IMG/VR virus record: IMGVR_UViG_2925891887_000001
DNA length: 64,000 bases
Source of the DNA: a virus
Lineage: Duplodnaviria > Heunggongvirae > Uroviricota > Caudoviricetes
Reading direction: 5' to 3' (one strand)
Within the stretch, counting starts at the first letter, position 1, and each line of letters starts with the position of its first letter. The translations under genes and the position numbers were made by a program. This document shows, one piece after another, positions 24,692 to 36,332 of this stretch. The notes beneath the pieces were generated by a model, which ran no database searches, was not told where the DNA came from, and saw nothing but the letters and a program-made list of their open reading frames with translations.

Positions 24692-24820
24692 GTGTAATTA
24701 GCTTAATCAATCAGTTGATAATGGCGGTCACAATTTGATTCTTTTCTATAAGAATCCGTTGATCGCCACTACTCTTCTTCCATACCTGCAATCACACCTT
24801 TAAATATCAATAGGTTAACG

Positions 24821-24850
24821 TTGTTTATACCAATAAGAAAACAACTAAAT
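24821..24850 (+). promoter_or_regulatory. promoter cassette (half operator)
   Basis: TTGTTTATACCAATAAGAAAACAACTAAAT. The AAAACAACTAAATAACA part recurs at 25069-25085. Confidence 0.4.
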
Positions 24851-24898
24851 AACAGATCAACGAAACATCAACGCTTTCACCCGATTTGGTCTAAAAAA

Positions 24899-24927
24899 TT
24901 GACGTTTTCACACATCACTTCTTATAC
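24899..24927 (+). promoter_or_regulatory. sigma70-like promoter
   Basis: TTGACG, a 17-nt spacer, then TTATAC. Confidence 0.4.
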
Positions 24928-25673
24928 CCGTAATTCTACGCAGCAGATAGCGCTACAGCGTCCAAATTTCACCACAGACGACTCAACACACTACCAACAA
25001 AAACACACGCTCAAAATCGCTCCCGTTGCGTTACACAACCATATAAACAACTTATTTTCAGGTATAACAAAACAACTAAATAACACACATGCCATTACCC
25101 AAAACAACCAACCTCTTTATGGCAGGCTACCGAAAAGACCCACCTCTTCTCCCCAGGCTACCGGACAACCAACCTAACTTTCACAGGCAATCCGAAAACA
25201 TTCATACGCGCGATACCCACGACACGCCATTACCCAAACAGCGAAGAAACACCAGAATCACTGAAAACCCAACGAAGCCTGTTACCGCAAGGATTCTCTC
25301 AATCCCAAAAGACACGAAACAGAACAATCACGGGAAACGCCATTACCCAATACACGAATAACTACAAAAGCCTTTCACACACTCCAGACAAACAACTCAA
25401 ACACAATAACGAAAGGAATCGCCCACCTGCCATTACTCCATACACGGAGAAGAACAATCACCAAAACGACGAGAACACCCCATAGAAGAACCACCGCAAA
25501 ACGAACGAAACCACATACACCGACAGAGAGAACAACACACCCAATTCACCAACAGAAATAGTCGCCGTATAGAACGTTCTGGAAGGAGTGAGCATTAACG
25601 CCTATAGAGAGGTTGAGACAGATAAAACACAACATGTATAGCGAAGAAGCCAGGTATGTATAAGTGGGGAGGG

Positions 25674-27991: not shown

Positions 27992-28028
27992 AACAATTTG
28001 TTTTCTGCCTTATCTGATTTGTGAAAAT
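27992..28028 (+). promoter_or_regulatory. promoter cassette with upstream operator
   Basis: AACAATTTGTTTT (27992-28004), then TGTGAAAAT (28020-28028). Confidence 0.5.
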
Positions 28029-28062
28029 GATTTCACTGAAGCAAGTTAATAAGGAAACCATC

Positions 28063-28437
28063 ATGGGACTTGATATCTATATCGAGACACAGCCTAAAAA
28101 CGATCTGAATAACGAGGCATCCAGAAAGCAGGTTGCTTACTTCCGTAAGTTCAATGCGCTCGTTGGGTGGATGGAGCGCAACGTAGGTGAAGTCGAAAAT
28201 TGTGAGCTTTTAGAATTAACGATGAATGACATTTGTTTTCTGAAGGCTCATTTGATGCACATAAACGAAAGTAATTGCGAAGAGTACTTGCCTACCCGGG
28301 AAGGTTTTTTCTTCGGCAGTCAGGAGTACGATGAAGGTTACTGGCATGATGTGGGGCAGTTGAAAGAGCTTGTGGAAGATCTGATTAAGAACCACGACTT
28401 TCACAATAACAGACTGACCTTCTGCGCCTGGTGGTAA
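28063..28437 (+). CDS. hypothetical protein (124 aa)
   Basis: ATG 28063 follows AAGGAAACC. Confidence 0.5.
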   Translation: MGLDIYIETQPKNDLNNEASRKQVAYFRKFNALVGWMERNVGEVENCELLELTMNDICFLKAHLMHINESNCEEYLPTREGFFFGSQEYDEGYWHDVGQLKELVEDLIKNHDFHNNRLTFCAWW

Positions 28438-28439
28438 AT

Positions 28440-28583
28440 ATGGGCGATTTCAAGAAACGCCTGAAGGAAAGAGCCGAGATGGTCAGAAAGCAAAACGCCT
28501 CTTCTGTCATCAGATACGCAAGGCAGTTTAGTCGCAACAACAAATCAGTTGAGGAAAAGATCCTTAGCGTAATCGTGCGATAA
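28440..28583 (+). CDS. small basic protein (47 aa), below the ORF-track cutoff
   Basis: ATG lies 3 nt after the upstream stop. Translates to MGDFKKRLKERAEMVRKQNASSVIRYARQFSRNNKSVEEKILSVIVR. A hairpin follows at 28589-28612. Confidence 0.35.
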   Translation: MGDFKKRLKERAEMVRKQNASSVIRYARQFSRNNKSVEEKILSVIVR

Positions 28584-28734
28584 TTATTAAGGCCATCAGC
28601 ATTGGTGGCCTTAAATGACCATCTTGTTTCCCGCAGGCTAAAAACACCAACCTCTTACCTCCAGGCAACCGACAAACCCACCTGTTCCCGTCCGGCTACC
28701 GCAACTTTCCACTTTGACGCCTTATTCGTACAAC

Positions 28735-28766
28735 GATAATTAACACCAACAAGAAAACAATTTGTT
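28735..28766 (+). promoter_or_regulatory. promoter/operator cassette
   Basis: GATAAT (28735-28740), with TTGACG at 28714-28719. Then AAAACAATTTGTT (28754-28766). Confidence 0.55.
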
Positions 28767-28787
28767 ATTTACGATAAGGAATTAATC

Positions 28788-29270
28788 ATGAATTTTATCG
28801 CTACTGTAAACGCACCCGCACATGGCAATATCGCTGTAACGTTCTCTGACATTGAAAAACGAGTACTTGGTGCATGGCGCGACAATGAGACGGTAGAACT
28901 GTCAGCACAAGAAAAATGCATTATTGCACGCGACATCATTGGCAATCGTCGTTACTCGCGGGTATTTGAGAAAGCGTATGTGGTAAATTCTGGATTCGGA
29001 ACGTTCGTCTTTCCGGTGCGCTCCGGGCGATTCTGCCAGTCCAAGCTGATTGAGTTCGCTACGCAGATTTCTTTCTGGATTAAAACTCAATCGTCGTTCA
29101 AATTTTCCGACGATGAAGCAGTATCGCAGGGGATGCGGATCGCCAACAATGCAATTAAATGCAAAAACATTACGTATACCGCTGGCGTTGATACATGGAA
29201 ACTGTTTTGCGCTAACTTTATGCTGAATGTATACGCAAGCAACCGCATCCACATCCTTGATGGCGTGTAA
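28788..29270 (+). CDS. hypothetical protein (160 aa)
   Basis: ORF after TAAGGAAT. Confidence 0.55.
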   Translation: MNFIATVNAPAHGNIAVTFSDIEKRVLGAWRDNETVELSAQEKCIIARDIIGNRRYSRVFEKAYVVNSGFGTFVFPVRSGRFCQSKLIEFATQISFWIKTQSSFKFSDDEAVSQGMRIANNAIKCKNITYTAGVDTWKLFCANFMLNVYASNRIHILDGV

Positions 29271-29276
29271 CTGAGA

Positions 29277-29300
29277 AGAGGGCCAGAAACGGCCCTTTCT
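29277..29300 (+). terminator. intrinsic terminator
   Basis: AGAGGGCC/GGCCCTTT stem. The loop itself contains an iteron-like CAGAAACGG. Confidence 0.55.
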
Positions 29301-29438
29301 CTATAGCCACCAGCTGCCGCAGGGAAATTTTCAGAAACGGCGAGGAACGTATTCATGAGCCGACGGGGAACGGCCAGGATTTTTTCGGGAAACGGCTGCA
29401 TTTGCCTTTGTGTAGAAAAAACATCGGGAAGCTGGTGG
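29284..29438 (+). repeat. direct-repeat (iteron-like) array 2, same motif family as 25761-25893
   Basis: Copies at 29284, 29320, 29332, 29342, 29364 (CGGGGAACGGCCAGG), 29386 (CGGGAAACGGCTGC) and 29425. Three of them are spaced by exactly 22 nt. Confidence 0.7.
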
Positions 29439-29796
29439 AATCCAACCAGCGGTTGTCGGACAGGTGAGCGGGGAAAATTATGATGACTTTCGTCACCTGA
29501 GACATCCAGATTTCTTTCGTAGCATAATCACATACGTGATTAAGTGGTGTGATTATGTGAAAAATCACGCGCACATAATACGCGAGCGGATACGGAACAA
29601 AACAAAATGCCGATCCGCGCCGACAAATAAACGCGGATCATAAAGCAAGACTAAAAGCCAATGATTAACTATGCGCTATAACGCGTTTTAAGCGCGTTAA
29701 TGTGTTAAGTAATGGGTATGTACTGGCAAGGATATAAAAGCGCGTCTATGGCGTTATTTTGGCGCTTATTTTTATGTTGTTGGAGTGAGTTAAAGA

Positions 29797-29826
29797 CAAT
29801 AAAAAACGCGCCATCAATGGCGCGTT
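29797..29826 (-). terminator. intrinsic terminator of the minus-strand island operon
   Basis: AACGCGCCAT/ATGGCGCGTT 10-bp stem, followed on the minus strand by T6. Confidence 0.75.
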
Positions 29827-29847
29827 ATTGTGGAAGTATTGGAAACG

Positions 29848-29871
29848 AAAAAAGCGCCCATAGTGGGCGCT
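29848..29871 (-). terminator. intrinsic terminator (first of a tandem pair)
   Basis: AGCGCCCA/TGGGCGCT stem with T5 on the minus strand. The same hairpin family occurs at 30349-30369. Confidence 0.75.
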
Positions 29872-29876
29872 CGATT

Positions 29877-30107
29877 TTATTTGTGTAAACTGATTTTAAA
29901 TCCCATTTCTACGAACGCTTTTAACATTAAAAATATATCAGCGTCGTTCACGTCTGCTTTTTTTCGCTCCTGGTCGCTCAATAAGTCAATTTTGCGCGTC
30001 GTTTCATCTATAAGCTCGACTACACGCCCAGCGTAACCAGCGATCCCAGCGATGCGATTAACATAATATTCATTATGGACGTTAACGCCAGCGATAAGAA
30101 CAAACAT
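29877..30107 (-). CDS. hypothetical protein (76 aa)
   Basis: ORF in the AT-rich island with AAGGAG upstream on the minus strand. Confidence 0.45.
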   Translation of the reverse strand: MFVLIAGVNVHNEYYVNRIAGIAGYAGRVVELIDETTRKIDLLSDQERKKADVNDADIFLMLKAFVEMGFKISLHK

Positions 30108-30128
30108 GATTAAGCTCCTTAAAAAAAA

Positions 30129-30332
30129 TTAAATAGAATTTTGAAGTTTTCCGATTAATGCGCTTAAGCGTAAGTATTCACGTTTGCGCTTGCAATCTCG
30201 CTTGCTGTTAAGCAAATCAGAAAACGTAAAATTTAATTGGTCGCGTTGCGCGATCAAATCGTCGATTAATTCCAGTTTATAAGCGCGATAATTTGCGCGA
30301 TATTCTGCGCGGATCTTGTCATAGCTGACCAT
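30129..30332 (-). CDS. hypothetical protein (67 aa)
   Basis: ATG 30332 follows AAAGGAGC. The listed start at 30377 lies inside a hairpin. Confidence 0.45.
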   Translation of the reverse strand: MVSYDKIRAEYRANYRAYKLELIDDLIAQRDQLNFTFSDLLNSKRDCKRKREYLRLSALIGKLQNSI

Positions 30333-30380
30333 CTTTAAAGCTCCTTTAAAGCGCCCATTGTGGGCGCTTGATTCCATTAA

Positions 30381-31040
30381 TTACGCTTTAAAAGCATCAG
30401 CTAAATAATTGTAGAAATCATTCTTGATAAAGCGATATTGCTGTGTACCAGCTTTGGCGCTCCCAGCTCCTTTGACTTTTTCAACAAGTCCGAGACGTTC
30501 GCAAAGATTGATCAACTGGTTGGCTTGAGTATAGCCAGCGTCCAATTTAATTTCACACGCTTTTTTAGCTTCATTCATTAAATCGAAAACAGCGCCATTG
30601 GTGAACGTGTCGATCTCGTCGTTAATCATATCGATTAAAGCGAATACACGAGATCCAGACATATCAGCGATGGAATAAACGCATTTACCAGATTTAATGG
30701 ATTTAACCAGATAAACCAGTTTTTCCAGTGAATAACTATTAGTCATTGCATCACGGAAAAATACTTCTGGCGCTTGTTTGCTTGCTTTAATCGCATAGTA
30801 GAAAACAGAGCATAATTTTTCGTCTTCTACTGCGTTTACGACGTTGTTGATGAAGTAAGCAAGTTTAGTGGTCGCAGCTTGCATATTTGCTTTGTCTGCT
30901 TTGGTGTGCGTACCATTTTTATAATGTTCGTTATATGTTTGAGTTGCCAGATCTGCTTTTTCGCGCAGCTCGTCGGATACAATAGATGCAGCTTCAATGA
31001 TGGACTTTTTAGAAATGATAATGTTAGCCATGATGGACAT
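30381..31040 (-). CDS. hypothetical protein (219 aa)
   Basis: ORF in the AT-rich island. No motif recognised. Confidence 0.55.
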   Translation of the reverse strand: MSIMANIIISKKSIIEAASIVSDELREKADLATQTYNEHYKNGTHTKADKANMQAATTKLAYFINNVVNAVEDEKLCSVFYYAIKASKQAPEVFFRDAMTNSYSLEKLVYLVKSIKSGKCVYSIADMSGSRVFALIDMINDEIDTFTNGAVFDLMNEAKKACEIKLDAGYTQANQLINLCERLGLVEKVKGAGSAKAGTQQYRFIKNDFYNYLADAFKA

Positions 31041-31284
31041 CCTTACGAAAAATTAAAATGAATTTATTTTTTACTGTCGTTAGCTAGCTCGCTTTCGACG
31101 AGTTCAATTATCGATACGTGAAAAAAGATTGCAAGTATTTTTTTTAAATTTTCTGCAGGGATGAAAGTCCTAGAAATAAAAGCGAGATCGTCGAAGGTGT
31201 TCCCTAAATAAATAATCAATTCGGGCCTTTAACCTTATATATTTATACGGAGTGGCATCGAAAGAGTTTTAAATGAATGGCATG

Positions 31285-31314
31285 TAAAATAATAACCGGA
31301 CTTAGCCGGTTATT
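31285..31314 (-). terminator. intrinsic terminator
   Basis: AATAACCGG/CCGGTTATT stem downstream of gene 31327-31851. Confidence 0.6.
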
Positions 31315-31326
31315 ACCCTTATAGAT

Positions 31327-31851
31327 TTAAAATGGAAGGATTCGTTCAACCCAATCGAAGAAAACAAGTATTTTTCTGCCGTCTTCTAACTTAAGAGTGA
31401 CCTGGCAAGCATCAACGCCTCTTGACACCCCTTCTATTTCACGACCGTCTGTCATGTAGACCCTTATAGATTGGTCGTTTTGATAAGCCTTGCGACATAT
31501 CGCAAAAAAGTCACGGCGTGATGGCTGATTGTCAACATAGTCTGGATGTATTGTTAGCCTACCTTTGAACTCGCGAGCAATGTCATCGATTACACCTGAT
31601 TCAATTGTGCTAATGCGCTCAAGTGGGAGTCTTATACGATTTTCTTTATCATATGGAATCGGGCATAAATCTAGCTTATTGCGTGAAGGCATTGTCCCCT
31701 GAACGTACATGCAAAACACCTGACCGTCTTCAAGCGTGACTCTTACAGGAATGTTGTTCTTCCGCCAGAACATAAGTATGTTCTCAGCATGTTCGTAGTC
31801 TCGCGGCCAGACTTCAGCCGGTATGCCGTAGGTGATGTCCAATGTTCTCAT
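31327..31851 (-). CDS. hypothetical protein with an internal duplication (174 aa)
   Basis: Two copies of the pattern hRVxhxDGxxh...G (IPVRVTLEDGQVFCMYVQG and SIRVYMTDGREIEGVSRG). ATGA overlap with the upstream gene. Confidence 0.55.
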   Translation of the reverse strand: MRTLDITYGIPAEVWPRDYEHAENILMFWRKNNIPVRVTLEDGQVFCMYVQGTMPSRNKLDLCPIPYDKENRIRLPLERISTIESGVIDDIAREFKGRLTIHPDYVDNQPSRRDFFAICRKAYQNDQSIRVYMTDGREIEGVSRGVDACQVTLKLEDGRKILVFFDWVERILPF

Positions 31852-32447
31852 TCTGATACTCTTAGAGGTGTTTTCAGCAATCCAAATTTAAATTCTTTAT
31901 TACCAACGACCAAGAAGGGGACTTCAACATAGATTTTTTTATCGACGGATTTAGAGTTCGCTGTTTTCTTGATGTCGCGAACGATACGTTTTGTTGTGTT
32001 TTCATCAATAAACAATACCTTCCCACTGGTATTCCCTTCAGTCTTAGCATAAGTGACAATAGGTTCTTCATTGCCAACTCTGATGTTCACTTGGCAACCC
32101 GTTGTAGCCATTTCATCACAATAGAGTGTACCGTCTTGAATTTCTAAAACAATTCCAGATGGCTTCATGGCCTCGTTAGAGCTTACATTAGCGTTTTCTG
32201 GTACTGCGGTCCCGTTAATTTGCAACCGTAATCTTTCTGTTCCTGCATGAAGTATTGTTTCTTCTGCGTTATCTGAGAATCTATACCAGACTGGTTGAAT
32301 CAGACCTCGTGATTTGTATTTTAGTACGTCTTCAGAAGTATACATGCTGTACGTTTTTTGCATGTCAGAGACGAAATCTGATAATGCGTTGGCGGAAAAC
32401 GCCGGGAGGCATATACAAGCAAGGAATAACGAAAGTTTCATTTTCAT
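31848..32447 (-). CDS. predicted secreted/periplasmic protein (about 199 aa)
   Basis: Signal-peptide-like MKMKLSLFLACICLPAFSANA. The listed start at 32462 is a TTG. Confidence 0.55.
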   Translation of the reverse strand: MKMKLSLFLACICLPAFSANALSDFVSDMQKTYSMYTSEDVLKYKSRGLIQPVWYRFSDNAEETILHAGTERLRLQINGTAVPENANVSSNEAMKPSGIVLEIQDGTLYCDEMATTGCQVNIRVGNEEPIVTYAKTEGNTSGKVLFIDENTTKRIVRDIKKTANSKSVDKKIYVEVPFLVVGNKEFKFGLLKTPLRVSE

Positions 32448-32462
32448 ATCATGATAATCCAA

Positions 32463-32951
32463 TTATTTAACATCACACTTTCTAATTTTTTCTATTTGTT
32501 CTAATTTTTCATGATCATCATTTAGATTTCCTTTGACTATCTCCGTTTCAAGTTTGCTGATTAGCATGTTAAGTGCGTTGTAGTTATTGCATTTTACTTT
32601 GTAGGCGTAGTATGACCTTGTCCCTGGTTTTTGTACACCCATATCATTAAAGTTAGAGCTTAAAGTATAACCTTCAAGTTCAACCCCTTTTATTGTTGGA
32701 AGAATTATATTTAATGGTTCTAATTTAAATGGGTAGATATAAATATGTGATATGAAGTACTCTTCTGAAGAGATTTTCTTCATGTCTTTTGTGATTGAAA
32801 CTGAATATTTACGGTCCCGAGCGATATAAAATTTTGTACATTTGTACGGCTCTAAGTTGAATAGATAATATCTGTCTTTAAAAAGAACATCTTTTCCATG
32901 TGATATTTTATGTCGTAAAGAGTTAATTATTTTGTTTATAGAAATACTCAT
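32463..32951 (-). CDS. hypothetical protein (162 aa), extremely AT-rich gene
   Basis: K/I/Y/N-rich ORF. First gene of an apparent three-gene operon. Confidence 0.5.
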   Translation of the reverse strand: MSISINKIINSLRHKISHGKDVLFKDRYYLFNLEPYKCTKFYIARDRKYSVSITKDMKKISSEEYFISHIYIYPFKLEPLNIILPTIKGVELEGYTLSSNFNDMGVQKPGTRSYYAYKVKCNNYNALNMLISKLETEIVKGNLNDDHEKLEQIEKIRKCDVK

Positions 32952-33096
32952 CTACAGTATCCGACCTTAGTTATCAATTGAAAAGCCTACAAATATCGTT
33001 CAGCCAATCAAGAAATTTTTTCAGCCGGAGGTATGTACTTCAAAAAATGTGATGAATGTCACATGCAGGTGCTCTCATACACCTGCATGTAGACTA

Positions 33097-33663
33097 TTAA
33101 TCATTCAATAATCTATATTTTCTTTTGATTAAATCTTCACCTTTTTTGGTGAACACAAAACCAAATTGCGATTTTTTGTTCAGCCTAAGGACTCTGTTAT
33201 CCAACGCATCGGTTGATGGAATCAATGTTTGATCATCTATCCAATTAAGTAGCGTAAGAAAGTTCAGCAGCCTCAACGTTGTTGTGCGAAGCTCTTTCGA
33301 TATATTTTCAATGCTGGCAATTCGTCTTTCTTTTTTCTCAGGTGGTACAGATAATTGTTCTTGAGGTTTCGTGGGTAGATAATCAATTTCGTTTGCTGAA
33401 TCGAATGATATGTGTGGCGTAATTTTGCTAAAAAAGCCTTTCGCTGACTCACTTGATAATAAACCAGACCTATTCATATCGTTTGTTATTCTGTACAGGA
33501 GTGGACTGTGTTTCATTTCAGGATAACGTTGATAAAAGTTAAGCAATTCAAAAGCAGCATTAGCACCAACAAGAAAATCAGAAGGATCGCTGACTTTCCA
33601 GAAAGAATGATTTTTCTTAGCGCCAGTGGTGTCAACAAATGATAATTCTTTTAACCAACTCAT
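33097..33663 (-). CDS. hypothetical protein (188 aa)
   Basis: ATG 33663 follows AAAGGAGC. A hairpin at 33061-33090 lies downstream. Confidence 0.5.
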   Translation of the reverse strand: MSWLKELSFVDTTGAKKNHSFWKVSDPSDFLVGANAAFELLNFYQRYPEMKHSPLLYRITNDMNRSGLLSSESAKGFFSKITPHISFDSANEIDYLPTKPQEQLSVPPEKKERRIASIENISKELRTTTLRLLNFLTLLNWIDDQTLIPSTDALDNRVLRLNKKSQFGFVFTKKGEDLIKRKYRLLND

Positions 33664-33728
33664 GATGTGCTCCTTTCTAACAAGTGAGCACATCATAGAA
33701 TTAGTAGATAGGGGGTAAATATGAAATG

Positions 33729-34007
33729 TTACGGCAACCTGCTCAGTATTTCCTCTAGATCTTTTTTTGTCATATTGGAGTTCTCATAGATGCGCATGAT
33801 TTTCTCACGCGTCTTAGCGGAAACCCCAACGGCAGATGTGACTTTGTCAAATTCAGCCATAGTCATCGTCTCCAGAATGGCATTGATAACTTCAGCCTTA
33901 GACATCTTGATTTTTTTCTCTTTGAGTTTTATTTGAAATTTTCCAAGTTTTTCATTGGCCTTATCAGACAATGCCACTTGGCAATAAGTTGTTTTCTTTT
34001 CGCTCAT
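33729..34007 (-). CDS. hypothetical protein (92 aa)
   Basis: Start lies 2 nt downstream of the helicase stop. Confidence 0.5.
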   Translation of the reverse strand: MSEKKTTYCQVALSDKANEKLGKFQIKLKEKKIKMSKAEVINAILETMTMAEFDKVTSAVGVSAKTREKIMRIYENSNMTKKDLEEILSRLP

Positions 34008-34009
34008 AA

Positions 34010-35569
34010 CTAATCTCGTTTCAGAACTCCAAAATCGAATGCGCCATCAACAGGCAATACACCTTCTGCAAAGCCAGGTGTGGTGTCGATGATGTGTTTT
34101 CGCTCATAAGAGTGAGACAACAGGTATTTGTTGCTAATGTCAATGAAATCAGTGATAAAACACACGTTTGCCTGATTCTTCTTGGCTCGTAAGCCACGAC
34201 CGACACGTTGTCTCATTTCAACTTCTGCTTTCCCACCACCAGCAAGAATGACCGCACCAACGCTTGGCACATCAACACCGACATCCAGAATAGTCGAGCC
34301 TATTAAAACATCTATGTCGCCAGACGCTAAACTGTTCAGCTTTGCTTGCCTTGTCGACTGGTTCGATTCCCCATAAATGAAGTCAACTCTAAGGCCGGAC
34401 TCTTTCATCATTTCCATCAGGATTTGCCCGTGGCGTTTAAGACGAACCAGAGTCATACAATTGAGAGAATGTTGCTTATAGAGCAATGCTTCGCGAACAA
34501 TGGCCTCATTACGTCCCAAATTATACACGATCCCCAACTGATAAGCCTTTTGGTAGGCAGTGCTCATACCTACTCTAAAATTGAGGTGTTTGTTGGCAAG
34601 TTCTGCCTTGATTCTGGCCTCGTCCGGCTTGTAGGCAACTTTATGATAAAGGAAGTATGGCTTTGCCAGAATGCCTCTATCAATCAGGTACTTTTCCGTG
34701 ACTTTTATTTCAATTCGCCCGGCCACTGCCATCAGACGCATGTTGGCTTCCGTAGAATCCTTCATGAACGGCGTTGCCGTAAGCGCCAGGCGATAGTCTG
34801 CGTTCGCACATAATCTGGCAATGTCATAGAAATTAGAGCCTGAAGACTCATGCGCCTCTTCCAGAATAAGAAGAGAGACACTTGAAAGGAAGCGTTTCAC
34901 CAAGTCCCGACGTTTGAGGTGGTAGCTCTTCTTATCTGGAGTTGCATCGCGTGGTGGTTCTTCAAGGAAACTTGCCAGAGTTTGAACTGTAGCGACGTTG
35001 ATATGTCGTGATACCTGGAACTCACCCGAGCCAATGACTCCAACCTTTTGGTCTTTTAACCACGGTTCGCCATTTTCGGCGCGGTAGTCGATGGATCTCT
35101 GGAAGTTTTCGGCCATCTGAAACATCAGAACAGAGCGGGTTGTTAAAAATAATGTCATTCGACCGATACGTGCAGCTGCTTTGCAGGCAACATTAGATTT
35201 CCCGCCACCAGTAGCGATCTGCGCAATCATCATTCCCTCTCGAACCAGTGTTTCCACAGTCTGATCCTGATATGCATAATCAGGATTGTATGGGAATGGG
35301 TTGACCGCCGGATTTGGCTTTCCAAGCGCCGGAGCTTTGTCTTTGCGGATATGAACACATTTGATGCCCGCCTTGTTCAAGTTCGCCGCTACAGGCTTGG
35401 CAAAGCCAGCAGGGAACGAGTTTTTACTCCAGTTGAACATCGTGCTTGTGCCCTTCCAGTCGCCAGTCTCGACTTCGTAGCTCAACATCTGTTGCACCAG
35501 TTGCTTTACCTTGTCATCTGCGCCAGAAATAAGTGCATTTACTGCGTTAGATACAATCCGAACAGTCAT
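34010..35569 (-). CDS. SF2 (DEAH-type) DNA helicase
   Basis: Motif I IATGGGKS, motif II LILEEAHE, motif III LTATP, motifs V-VI VGVDVPSVGAVILAGG...QRVGRGLR. Confidence 0.85.
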   Translation of the reverse strand: MTVRIVSNAVNALISGADDKVKQLVQQMLSYEVETGDWKGTSTMFNWSKNSFPAGFAKPVAANLNKAGIKCVHIRKDKAPALGKPNPAVNPFPYNPDYAYQDQTVETLVREGMMIAQIATGGGKSNVACKAAARIGRMTLFLTTRSVLMFQMAENFQRSIDYRAENGEPWLKDQKVGVIGSGEFQVSRHINVATVQTLASFLEEPPRDATPDKKSYHLKRRDLVKRFLSSVSLLILEEAHESSGSNFYDIARLCANADYRLALTATPFMKDSTEANMRLMAVAGRIEIKVTEKYLIDRGILAKPYFLYHKVAYKPDEARIKAELANKHLNFRVGMSTAYQKAYQLGIVYNLGRNEAIVREALLYKQHSLNCMTLVRLKRHGQILMEMMKESGLRVDFIYGESNQSTRQAKLNSLASGDIDVLIGSTILDVGVDVPSVGAVILAGGGKAEVEMRQRVGRGLRAKKNQANVCFITDFIDISNKYLLSHSYERKHIIDTTPGFAEGVLPVDGAFDFGVLKRD

Positions 35570-35633
35570 AAACCTCTTTCCTTAGTGCCTTTTGTATGTT
35601 ATTTGGCTATTATAATAAGTAAGTGATTACTTA

Positions 35634-36332
35634 ATGGATTGTAGCAATAAAATGGATGTAAAAATCACGATTTTGCAGGTTGATGTTGCCAACCTTCGCC
35701 CGAATACCTGGAACACCAATTCGGTTGGTGCGCAGAATTTCGAAAAACTGAAAGGTTCTATCGAAAAATTGGGCTTTTTTAAGCCAATTTTGGCTCGTGA
35801 ACTTGAAGATGGATTTTTTGAAATCCTCGGCGGCGAACATCGCTGGCGTGCCGCTATTGAGCAAGGAATTTCAACGGTTCCGGTGCTTTCTGTGGGCAAA
35901 ATTAGCGATGTCGTAGCTAAACAGATGTCACTGGTGGACAACGAGCGATACGGTGAAGACGACCAAATCGCATTGCAACGCTTCATTGAAGAAATTCAGT
36001 CAGAGCTTGACTATCAACTGTCTGAAATCGCCCCGTATGACGACGAAATCTCGATGGTTTTAGCAAAAGAGGCGGCAATCGACCTTGAAGCACTGGAGGC
36101 GTTGTCTCGTGGTAGTGATGAGCCTGTCGATACCGACAAACGAGAGAAAACCGAACGTGTGGGTGCGGAACATCAGACCATGCGCTTCAAAGTAACTTTC
36201 GATGCGTCAGATCGTGTTGCAGAAACCATAAAAAACATCATTAAAGAGCAGGCTATTAACACCGGTAATGAAATGGAGAACGCTGGTGAGGCTCTGGTGT
36301 GGCTGGTCGACTACTACAAGGAGCGTATGTAA
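35634..36332 (+). CDS. ParB/Srx-fold N-terminal domain protein 1
   Basis: LRPNTWNTN...FKPILARELEDGFFEILGGEHRWRAAIEQGISTVPV matches the ParB N-terminal domain GxxR box. Acidic C-terminus. Confidence 0.65.
   Translation: MDCSNKMDVKITILQVDVANLRPNTWNTNSVGAQNFEKLKGSIEKLGFFKPILARELEDGFFEILGGEHRWRAAIEQGISTVPVLSVGKISDVVAKQMSLVDNERYGEDDQIALQRFIEEIQSELDYQLSEIAPYDDEISMVLAKEAAIDLEALEALSRGSDEPVDTDKREKTERVGAEHQTMRFKVTFDASDRVAETIKNIIKEQAINTGNEMENAGEALVWLVDYYKERM

Follow-up and report, generated by a model that had tools for sequence, protein, structure and literature searches.

A mosaic accessory arm in an SSU5-type phage-plasmid: backbone genes and a variable cargo slot beside an FljA-family gene

The stretch at positions 29,797 to 33,728 of a 64,000-nucleotide viral sequence (Caudoviricetes; IMG/VR record IMGVR_UViG_2925891887_000001; the whole sequence is called the window here) is, with high confidence, a mosaic accessory arm of an SSU5-type phage-plasmid backbone. 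The window comes from an Escherichia coli element of this type and belongs to the family of pHCM2 from Salmonella Typhi and pMT1 from Yersinia pestis. Positions 29877-31851 are family-wide backbone and hold a 219-amino-acid (aa) gene, a mini-cassette of a 67- and a 76-aa gene, and a 174-aa gene of the FljA family, referred to below as fljA-like. Only 31852-33728 is accessory; it carries three lineage-restricted ORFan genes and is one filling of a fixed slot between a 92-aa gene and the fljA-like gene. An earlier note on this DNA had taken all seven genes for a single horizontally acquired cargo island. Throughout, wN denotes the window gene or protein of N aa, w204 being the 199-aa protein counted from a TTG start.

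Backbone and accessory genes

The 4.6 kb around the stretch are 99.3% identical to the E. coli plasmid NZ_CP070135.1 and 94.7% identical to p2009EL-2050 (E. coli O104:H4) and to "Escherichia phage CMS-2020a", and parts of the same segment are 78-81% identical to Salmonella phage SSU5 and to phage-plasmids of Klebsiella. Megablast against PLSDB returned 769 matching plasmids, nearly all of them non-mobilizable and 100-115 kb in size. The annotated relatives have a common gene order of ParB-like genes, a DEAD-box helicase, the 92-aa gene, a variable segment and then the fljA-like gene (annotated as "transcriptional regulator / repressor of phase-1 flagellin"), followed by a gene of about 216 aa and small genes. 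The helicase and 92-aa genes lie 2 nt apart, which bears out the coupling proposed earlier.

Within this family of about 800 members the genes of the stretch have very different distributions. When searched by tblastn against the 72,556 plasmids of PLSDB, the fljA-like gene is found in 830 plasmids (Klebsiella 341, Escherichia 228, Enterobacter 92, Yersinia 62, Salmonella 60) and the 92-aa gene in 787. The corresponding counts are 177 for w188, which falls into two clades (at least 92% and about 41% identity), 64 for w204, chiefly from Escherichia and Shigella, and 22 for w162. Of the 100 related loci fetched, 93 encode a detectable 219-aa protein, at 62-100% identity and at least 84% except in two loci, and the 67- and 76-aa genes are common in the family, each being individually optional. 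Four of the seven supposed island genes are thus backbone, and the stretch cannot be one imported island. What survives of the cargo-island proposal concerns the three accessory genes, which combine low GC content (0.29-0.39) with a slot of variable content; the breadth of the 174- and 219-aa genes and of the two small genes contradicts a seven-gene unit. In PLSDB, intact open reading frames (ORFs) of all three accessory families extend down to 41-52% identity. Among 5.8 billion proteins, w162 matched 2 clusters, w204 14 and w188 10, and none of these clusters carries a Pfam domain.

The filling was put together by recombination. A comparison of the window with locus L009, from a close E. coli relative, gives a synonymous divergence (dS) of 0.12 for the helicase and 219-aa genes, against 0.88 for the 92-aa gene and 1.39 for the fljA-like gene; two K. 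pneumoniae plasmids repeat the pattern, with values of 0.04 and 0.08 for the flanking genes and saturation for fljA-like. As the ratio of non-synonymous to synonymous divergence (omega) is about 0.1 throughout both comparisons, the high dS values point to old alleles swapped by recombination, not to fast-evolving genes. Nucleotide alignments place breakpoints at gene borders: at the fljA-like stop (31329, seen against L009), the fljA-like start (31839/31840), the w204 start (32448), just upstream of w162 (32983) and at the 3' end of the 92-aa gene (33725-33754). Gene sets also differ, as the relative Cyrano is without w162 and w204 and keeps w188 and the same fljA-like allele, and a Shigella sonnei plasmid is without w188 and w162 and keeps w204. 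Breakpoints at gene borders, together with these differing gene sets, indicate that the filling was assembled gene by gene. The proposed operon of the 162-, 204- and 174-aa genes is accordingly a mosaic of independent modules. A single transcription unit finds support in a hairpin with a TTTT run that directly follows the 174-aa stop codon and likely ends the unit, but a coherent functional trio does not, since its third member is a core FljA homologue and w162 is often absent where w204 is present.

The compositional trough described earlier is real. GC content is 0.377 over 29797-33696 against a window mean of 0.469 (standard deviation 0.043, 500-bp windows), and the lowest value of the whole window, 0.306, falls at 32501-33000. 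By gene, it is 0.292 in w162, 0.356 in w188, 0.388 in w219, 0.392 in w67, 0.393 in w204, 0.398 in w76, 0.442 in the fljA-like gene and 0.472 in the helicase; the accessory part as a whole (31852-33728) has 0.354. All seven ORFs lie on the minus strand at the coordinates first given for them, and the 204- and 174-aa ORFs do share the 4 nt of an ATGA overlap. No integrase or transposase family was matched by the nine proteins of the stretch in Pfam, PHROGs or NCBIfam, a tRNA scan of 28000-36000 found no tRNA, and an Rfam scan of 28-36 kb gave nothing above threshold.

A fixed slot with interchangeable fillings

The slot was surveyed in 96 loci with both the 92-aa and the fljA-like gene, drawn from the window, PLSDB, GTDB and IMG/VR. 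Their spacers measure 115 to 2,943 bp and fall into 15 architectures. The block is not present or absent as a single unit: the three accessory genes vary among relatives gene by gene. An exported protein is encoded beside the fljA-like gene in 93 of the 96 loci. In 39 loci, including SSU5, pMT1 and pHCM2, this is a lipoprotein of 140-154 aa (family F0, phrog_890) whose gene lies 4 nt upstream of the fljA-like gene, and in 11 more the F0 gene lies on the opposite strand. The window type, w188-w162-w204, occurs in 10 loci, as does a w188-like gene with members of families F6 and F7. A w204-like gene stands alone in 7 loci and with a w188-like gene in 5, a 266-aa lipoprotein (F5) is present in 9, with or without w188, and the slot is empty in 3.

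The exported families are found on 655 (F0), 64 (F2, the w204 family), 61 (F5) and 76 (F7) PLSDB plasmids. The sum of 856 against 830 fljA-like plasmids corresponds to about one exported protein per plasmid. F5 and F7 align to each other by hhalign at 73% and both match phrog_2320 (E 1e-19 and 2e-17); with this common domain, the exported proteins reduce to three unrelated superfamilies (F0, F5/F7 and F2). By heuristic prediction, a lipobox is present in 52 of 52 F0 and 9 of 10 F5 proteins. The families are also biased by host, F2 and F5 being found chiefly in Escherichia and F7 chiefly in Klebsiella.

The 92-aa gene at the left border is itself variable, at 37-100% identity among relatives, though their helicases are 82-100% identical. 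Its N-terminus gives the impression, and only that, of the strand and helix of a ribbon-helix-helix protein.

Table 1. Features of the stretch and its borders, in window coordinates
Feature	Position	Strand	Remarks
92-aa gene	33729..34007	minus	left slot border; core; coupled to helicase; 37-100% identity
w188 start-site hairpin	33653..33704 (core arms 33686-33697 and 33661-33672)	minus	predicted to pair w188 Shine-Dalgarno and AUG
w188 (F1, phrog_13473)	33097..33663	minus	188-aa cytoplasmic ORFan
w188 3' hairpin	33061..33090	minus	11-12 bp stem just past stop; -24.7 kcal/mol, z -5.4
w162 (F4, phrog_25050)	32463..32951	minus	cytoplasmic ORFan; GC 0.29
w204 (F2, phrog_18942)	31848..32447	minus	199 aa (204 aa from TTG); overlaps fljA-like start by ATGA
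174-aa FljA-family gene	31327..31851	minus	PF03614; core gene, deeply diverged alleles
fljA-like 3' hairpin	31290..31315	minus	TAATAACCGG-N6-CCGGTTATTA + TTTT; directly after stop codon
219-aa gene (phrog_1513)	30381..31040	minus	backbone; promoter-like TTGCAA-16-GATAAT at 31134-31107
Hairpin copy 1	30349..30369	minus	between 219-aa stop and 67-aa start; left mini-cassette border
67-aa gene (phrog_6145)	30129..30332	minus	optional mini-cassette member
76-aa gene (phrog_1585)	29877..30107	minus	optional mini-cassette member
Hairpin copy 2	29852..29872	minus	AGCGCCCA-N3-TGGGCGCT; terminator after 76-aa gene; right mini-cassette border
Second tandem terminator	29805..29826	minus	AACGCGCCAT-N-ATGGCGCGTT; ends 219/67/76-aa unit

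The FljA homologue

The one constant neighbour of the exported proteins can be recognized. The earlier note had recognized none of the proteins, yet the 174-aa product clearly belongs to the FljA family on sequence grounds: it matches PF03614 (Flag1_repress) at E 3e-80 and 268.4 bits against a cut-off of 24, with residues 5-171 of 174 aligned to positions 1-170 of 170, and it also matches phrog_1444, "transcriptional repressor". A GTDB scan for FljA relatives returned 8 loci. Chromosomal homologues in Atlantibacter and Franconibacter are 39-41% identical and lie directly 3' of a flagellin gene, in the fljBA arrangement; at one locus (L019) a 498-aa flagellin gene immediately precedes that of the homologue. 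The motifs DITYG..AEVWPRDY, RRDFF.IC, IRVYM.DGR.IEG..GV.ACQV and FDWV.RI are common to the phage-plasmid and chromosomal proteins, and identity to chromosomal FljA is 36-41% overall. The gene upstream of the phage-plasmid copy is w204 here and a lipoprotein or other exported protein in relatives, never flagellin. The action of FljA on fliC mRNA is post-transcriptional, and E. coli given fljA on a plasmid became non-motile (PMC2652032). No paper was found on the FljA homologue of SSU5-, pHCM2- or pMT1-type elements, and a search of the window with the E. coli fliC leader for a mimic of that leader found none (best E 0.32). As the gene is under purifying selection in non-flagellate hosts, flagellin mRNA is unlikely to be its sole target.

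An arrangement of tandem Sm/Hfq-like domains in the FljA homologue was considered and is not established. The signals were a sub-threshold Pfam match to Hfq/LSM at residues 123-165 (E 5.7e-4) and a weak alignment of the N-terminal to the C-terminal half (hhalign E 0.008, probability 5%; IPVRVTLEDGQ with SIRVYMTDGRE).

A third point of insertion is the gap between the fljA-like and 219-aa genes. The window has no gene there (31041-31326), and some relatives have an extra small one, of 83 aa in L009 (4086-4337) and 99 aa in L104 (6344-6643).

The exported protein w204

The predicted signal sequence of w204, MKMKLSLFLACICLPAFSANA|LSD, ends at a cleavage site (FSANA|LSD) that is invariant in nine homologues, as are two cysteines; the export call is heuristic. 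These two cysteines suggest a periplasmic disulfide. The alignment of the family retains 45 invariant columns down to 45% identity, and omega is 0.13-0.14 at a dS of 0.29. Given this omega and the invariant residues, w204 is a real gene under purifying selection. It is found in a single phage record and in many plasmids without w162, the S. sonnei plasmid among them. Neither Pfam nor PADLOC holds a match. A lysogenic-conversion or exclusion role would be plausible for such a protein.

The TAA stop of w162 abuts the TTG that opens the 204-aa ORF (window 32462-32465). The two genes could be coupled by termination and reinitiation across this junction; in relatives without the w162 gene, the w204-like start must be the downstream ATG.

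The w162-like proteins

A core of about 75 residues is common to w162 (F4) and to families F6 and F11 (hhalign F4 to F6 94.5%, F4 to F11 85.5%), and the Klebsiella F6 protein matches the PHROG of w162 at E 5e-6. Genes of this kind always lie directly upstream of the exported-protein gene, whatever the family of the latter. A w162 profile run with HMMER against 1.84 billion representatives recovered its own family only. Compared with a close allele, w162 has 6 non-synonymous and 0 synonymous changes.

One relative (L030; IMGVR_UViG_3300015177_000008) encodes a 377-aa protein at the w162-like position between the 92-aa and fljA-like genes. The N-terminal half of this protein is F11-like (27% across 176 aa; E 2e-4 by hhalign), and an HNH nuclease makes up the C-terminal half (Pfam HNH, E 3e-6, which passes the cut-off; PADLOC HNH and mREase_IV at E 2-3e-5). 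The fusion hints at a conflict or defence role of the w162-like domain. It is the one exception among the slot proteins of relatives, which otherwise gave nothing against PADLOC. Searches of w162, w188, w204, the fljA-like protein, F0 and F5 against PDB sequences found nothing below E 0.09.

The ribosome-binding site of w188

Where present, w188 is always the first gene after the 92-aa gene, and in more than 2,500 data blocks it occurs every time at this locus. Its start at 33663, as proposed earlier, is supported by an AGGAG Shine-Dalgarno sequence and by a protein that matches the full PHROG profile. A hairpin at this start is predicted to sequester both the Shine-Dalgarno sequence and the AUG, locking the ribosome-binding site. 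It has a 12-bp stem with a minimum free energy of -28.1 kcal/mol (z -7.8), and none of 200 shuffled sequences was as stable. The stem is kept in both clades (41-43% protein identity): every cell of the alignment pairs in 8 distinct sequences, with one C-G to G-C swap and one wobble change, and outside the stem both the loop and the sequence upstream vary. By the same measure, w162, w204, fljA-like and w219 have unstructured starts (z -0.2 to +1.2).

A promoter-like site (TTTACC-16-TATGAT, 33719-33692), a 9-of-12 match to consensus, has its -10 inside the 5' arm of the hairpin. Read-through transcripts from the strongly expressed helicase/92-aa unit would then carry a locked ribosome-binding site and yield no w188 protein, which would be translated only from transcripts of its own promoter, lacking the 5' arm, or after the hairpin opens. 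The hairpin past the w188 stop, listed in the earlier note, is strong but is not a canonical terminator, for its T-run begins 13 nt downstream. Together, the locked ribosome-binding site and the strong hairpin after the stop would make w188 an insulated unit. A likeness of the w188 C-terminus to a KilA-C/ANT winged helix was considered and dropped, as Pfam lent it no support even at E up to 5.

Backbone hairpins and the mini-cassette

Across the 64 kb there are exactly two occurrences of AGCGCCCA-N3-TGGGCGCT (29853-29871 and 30350-30368), where chance would be expected to give none. The hairpins do lie where the earlier note had placed them, but they are conserved elements of the backbone and not a family of the island's own: they occupy the same two positions in SSU5, pHCM2 and the Klebsiella and Enterobacter relatives, and likewise in each of the first nine relatives checked, and pMT1 keeps the first copy only, with IS1541 adjoining. 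Among about 90 loci, the mini-cassette takes the form hairpin-w67-hairpin in 29, hairpin-w67-w76-hairpin, as in the window, in 23, hairpin-w76-hairpin in 21 and the hairpin alone in 11. Upstream of the point where the 219-aa gene ends, none of about 100 loci has a copy. The hairpin is most simply a backbone element and re-used terminator, and it is probably also the recombination border of the mini-cassette.

The tandem terminators after the 76-aa gene both pass a terminator scan, in agreement with the earlier claim; the outer one has 9 pairs, 6 of them G-C, before the T-run TTTTATTG. The hairpin at 30349-30369 is followed by TTT only and, like that at 33061-33090, is doubtful as a terminator. 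The 82-aa ORF first listed at 30129-30377 is real, but RefSeq and the PHROG profile make 30332 its most likely start, giving 67 aa and leaving the hairpin at 30350-30368 intergenic. A propagated name for this soluble protein, "MIT family metal ion transporter CorA" (SSU5_119, phrog_6145), is implausible and was rejected, as 67 aa are too small and there is no membrane segment.

Elsewhere in the window, 24750-25650 is CA-rich and strongly strand-skewed (GC skew -0.45, AT skew +0.46), with few ORFs and several degenerate direct repeats, among them GCCATTACCCAA... and a 31-nt unit, each present three times; Tandem Repeats Finder called no tandem array. This region may be iteron- or centromere-like.

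Expression in lysogens

RNA sequencing of E. coli LF82 carrying Cyrano (PMC9928086, Table S1) offers a view of the arm in the prophage state, as the fljA-like and w188 alleles of Cyrano are each 98% identical to those of the window (Table 2). The 92-aa gene is the highest of this block in lysogens, 12-fold over background. The fljA-like gene and its exported neighbour behave as lysogeny-expressed genes; in the lysogen readings the repressor spans 6.4-10.3 and capsid genes stand at 3-4 log2 units. The 219-aa gene (CYRAN_113) is silent in lysogens and rises only when the capsid genes rise, and the 76-aa gene (CYRAN_112) is near the detection floor; these two behave as lytic genes.

Table 2. Expression of Cyrano genes in E. 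coli LF82, as log2(fpkm+5), where fpkm is fragments per kilobase per million reads; lysogeny broth (LB), Dulbecco's modified Eagle's medium (DMEM) or macrophages (PMC9928086)
Gene	LB overnight	DMEM 1 h	DMEM 6 h	Macrophage 1 h	Macrophage 6 h
fljA-like (CYRAN_114)	4.2	7.2	7.0	8.1	8.0
Adjacent lipoprotein gene (CYRAN_115; range 4.8-9.4)	4.8	8.0	9.2	9.3	8.7
92-aa gene (CYRAN_117)	6.8	9.0	9.9	8.9	8.7
w188 homologue (CYRAN_116)	3.0	4.1	5.7	5.7	5.9
219-aa gene (CYRAN_113)	2.5	2.8	3.1	3.6	5.6
Major capsid gene	2.9	4.2	3.6	4.0	7.6
Repressor	6.6	9.2	7.5	10.3	9.9

A possible conversion module and its rivals

It is possible that the slot is a module for conversion of the host in the prophage state. In such a module, w204 would act at the envelope, where its most likely role would be to exclude incoming phage or DNA or otherwise to alter the surface, and it would be translated together with the FljA-like protein, which by homology would bind an mRNA leader and block translation; the w162-like domain would be a cytoplasmic accessory. 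We base this on expression in lysogens, the swapping of exported proteins at a fixed position and deep allelic diversity, together with the bias of the families towards particular host genera, the fusion to an HNH nuclease and a report that curing K. pneumoniae of an SSU5-like plasmid raised plasmid uptake and phage burst (PMC8969562). The anatomy and this conversion mechanism taken jointly are about evenly poised between right and wrong, and the envelope or exclusion mechanism for the slot is put forward tentatively, at rather less than even chances.

Several observations weigh against the conversion module. The three accessory proteins have no homologue of known function in Pfam, NCBIfam, PADLOC, PDB, the 5.8 billion proteins or the 1.84 billion representatives. 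The AlphaFold2 model of w204 has a pLDDT (predicted local distance difference test) of 56, its best Foldseek match in PDB being at E 0.03 with a template-modelling score below 0.3, and the w188 model is unusable at a pLDDT of 40; of the remote-homology and structural checks proposed earlier, Pfam thus identified FljA and the modelling of these two proteins was uninformative. The chain from w162 to the HNH nuclease runs through F4 to F11 (85%) and F11 to F12 (about 48%), on small-database statistics. The lysogen data cover CYRAN_115, which is of a different family from w204, and the w188 homologue is weakly expressed in Cyrano lysogens. Conservation of the fljA-like gene extends to Klebsiella (341 plasmids) and Y. 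pestis, hosts without flagella. The slot stands empty in three relatives, and it lies away from tail-fibre and receptor-binding genes, unlike classical exclusion lipoproteins such as Llp.

That the stretch is instead one acquired seven-gene island, whose cytoplasmic, periplasmic and small-domain trio forms a dedicated anti-phage defence or exclusion system, is very improbable. The GC trough is real, the 162-, 204- and 174-aa genes are tightly packed with a hairpin at the end, the slot of one relative holds an HNH-nuclease protein, and an SSU5-like plasmid lowered phage burst and plasmid uptake in Klebsiella (PMC8969562); set against these are the backbone membership of four of the seven genes, the core FljA homologue within the trio, plasmids such as that of S. 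sonnei with w204 and no w162, breakpoints that fall gene by gene, and the lack of any PADLOC match. In PADLOC-DB 2.0, eight of nine window proteins gave nothing at E up to 1 and the remaining match (SspC, E 0.032, 9.9 bits) is noise. A defence role of the ORFans alone is conceivable, but the proposal as worded in the earlier note is contradicted by four core genes and by the mosaic build. Still harder to credit is the notion that the three ORFans are neutral AT-rich filler or decaying remnants. Purifying selection on w204 (omega 0.13-0.14), its conserved signal peptidase site and cysteines, ORFs that remain intact to 41-52% identity in all three families and a w188 start hairpin conserved with a compensatory change all speak for function, despite the extremely narrow phylogenetic range and low GC of these genes, the three relatives with an empty slot, and the 6 non-synonymous and 0 synonymous changes in w162.

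The remaining alternatives turn on the FljA homologue. It could repress host fliC translation in lysogens, lowering motility, flagellin antigen and the adsorption of flagellotropic phages, with the exported neighbours as unrelated morons. This flagella shut-off is unlikely. In its favour, the match to PF03614 is full-length with the motifs of genuine FljA, a plasmid-borne fljA abolished E. coli motility (PMC2652032), and the Cyrano homologue is up about 16-fold in cell-culture medium and macrophages relative to LB. On the other side, an intact gene persists under purifying selection in Klebsiella (341 plasmids) and on pMT1 of Y. pestis, both hosts being without flagella, identity to chromosomal FljA is 36-41%, and no paper was found that links the gene to motility. 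H-typing works in hosts such as LF82, S. Typhi CT18 and O104:H4, which presumably still make FliC; this would also count against shut-off. Alternatively, the FljA-like protein may regulate mRNAs of the phage-plasmid itself, the slot ORFans being early or anti-defence genes of lytic growth or establishment. We regard this as a little less probable again. The near-repressor level of the fljA-like and adjacent exported genes in Cyrano lysogens, where the structural, 219- and 76-aa genes are silent, argues against it, and a periplasmic or lipoprotein product is odd for intracellular takeover; it does account for an FljA homologue conserved irrespective of host motility, and would fit the locked ribosome-binding site and low lysogen expression of w188, the location of the block within the helicase/ParB-like early region, and an allelic diversity that is typical of conflict genes.

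A bolder form of the conversion module would make the FljA homologue and its exported neighbour a conserved two-gene unit, silencing the mRNA of a host surface protein while remodelling or shielding the envelope. We consider this speculative and rather improbable; its expression cue is the roughly 16-fold rise of fljA-like in cell-culture medium and macrophages relative to LB in LF82. If true, it would mean post-transcriptional control of surface antigens by phage-plasmids, through alleles kept diverse by recombination, with flagellin as the target in motile hosts and the unit switched on in host-like conditions. The elements concerned would include pHCM2 (S. Typhi), pMT1 (Y. pestis) and plasmids of extensively drug-resistant S. 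sonnei.

SSU5-type phage-plasmids are common in clinical Enterobacteriaceae (about 800 in PLSDB) and are usually called cryptic. The main fixed cargo slot of these elements is now located, and it nearly always holds an exported protein beside an unstudied FljA homologue. Its genes could help to explain reported plasmid phenotypes, such as reduced phage burst and plasmid uptake or altered virulence.

Comparison with known systems

The conserved side of the slot is best compared with FljA of Salmonella fljBA, pBSSB1 fljA(z66) and the E. coli fljA-like genes. The phage-plasmid protein has the same motifs and a full-length PF03614 match, and its gene likewise lies directly 3' of an exported-protein gene with which it is predicted to be co-transcribed. 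It differs in adjoining a periplasmic-protein or lipoprotein gene instead of flagellin, in being core to about 800 elements, including those of non-flagellate Klebsiella and Y. pestis, and in having only 36-41% identity to chromosomal FljA. For w188, the T4 genes e, soc and I-TevI and Mu mom/Com offer start-site hairpins as a parallel (this and the following comparisons draw on general knowledge). As there, the Shine-Dalgarno sequence and AUG of w188 are predicted to be paired in a conserved stem, and with a putative -10 in the 5' arm, transcripts from its own promoter would escape the lock; unlike there, the w188 promoter is a 9-of-12 consensus match predicted from sequence.

Among prophage moron and exclusion proteins, Cor of phi80 and N15, Llp of T5, and Bor and Lom of lambda are similar to w204 in being small, exported and encoded at a fixed position. 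Unrelated proteins alternate at the slot, and the positional equivalent of w204 is expressed in lysogens. The differences are that w204 matches no annotated family, Cor and Llp not having been aligned directly, and that the slot does not adjoin receptor-binding genes. With the cargo hotspots of phages and satellites, such as those of P2 and P4, the slot has in common a fixed position between core genes, content exchanged by recombination, AT-rich ORFan cargo and, in one allele (L030), an HNH nuclease. It departs from them in cargo that matches no described defence system and in a constant element that is an exported protein rather than a cytoplasmic effector. On present evidence the slot is an ordinary phage moron or accessory hotspot in type, with ORFan content, and not a new class of system. 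Its fillings belong to no described family; what is unusual in this hotspot is that its constant partner is an FljA homologue.

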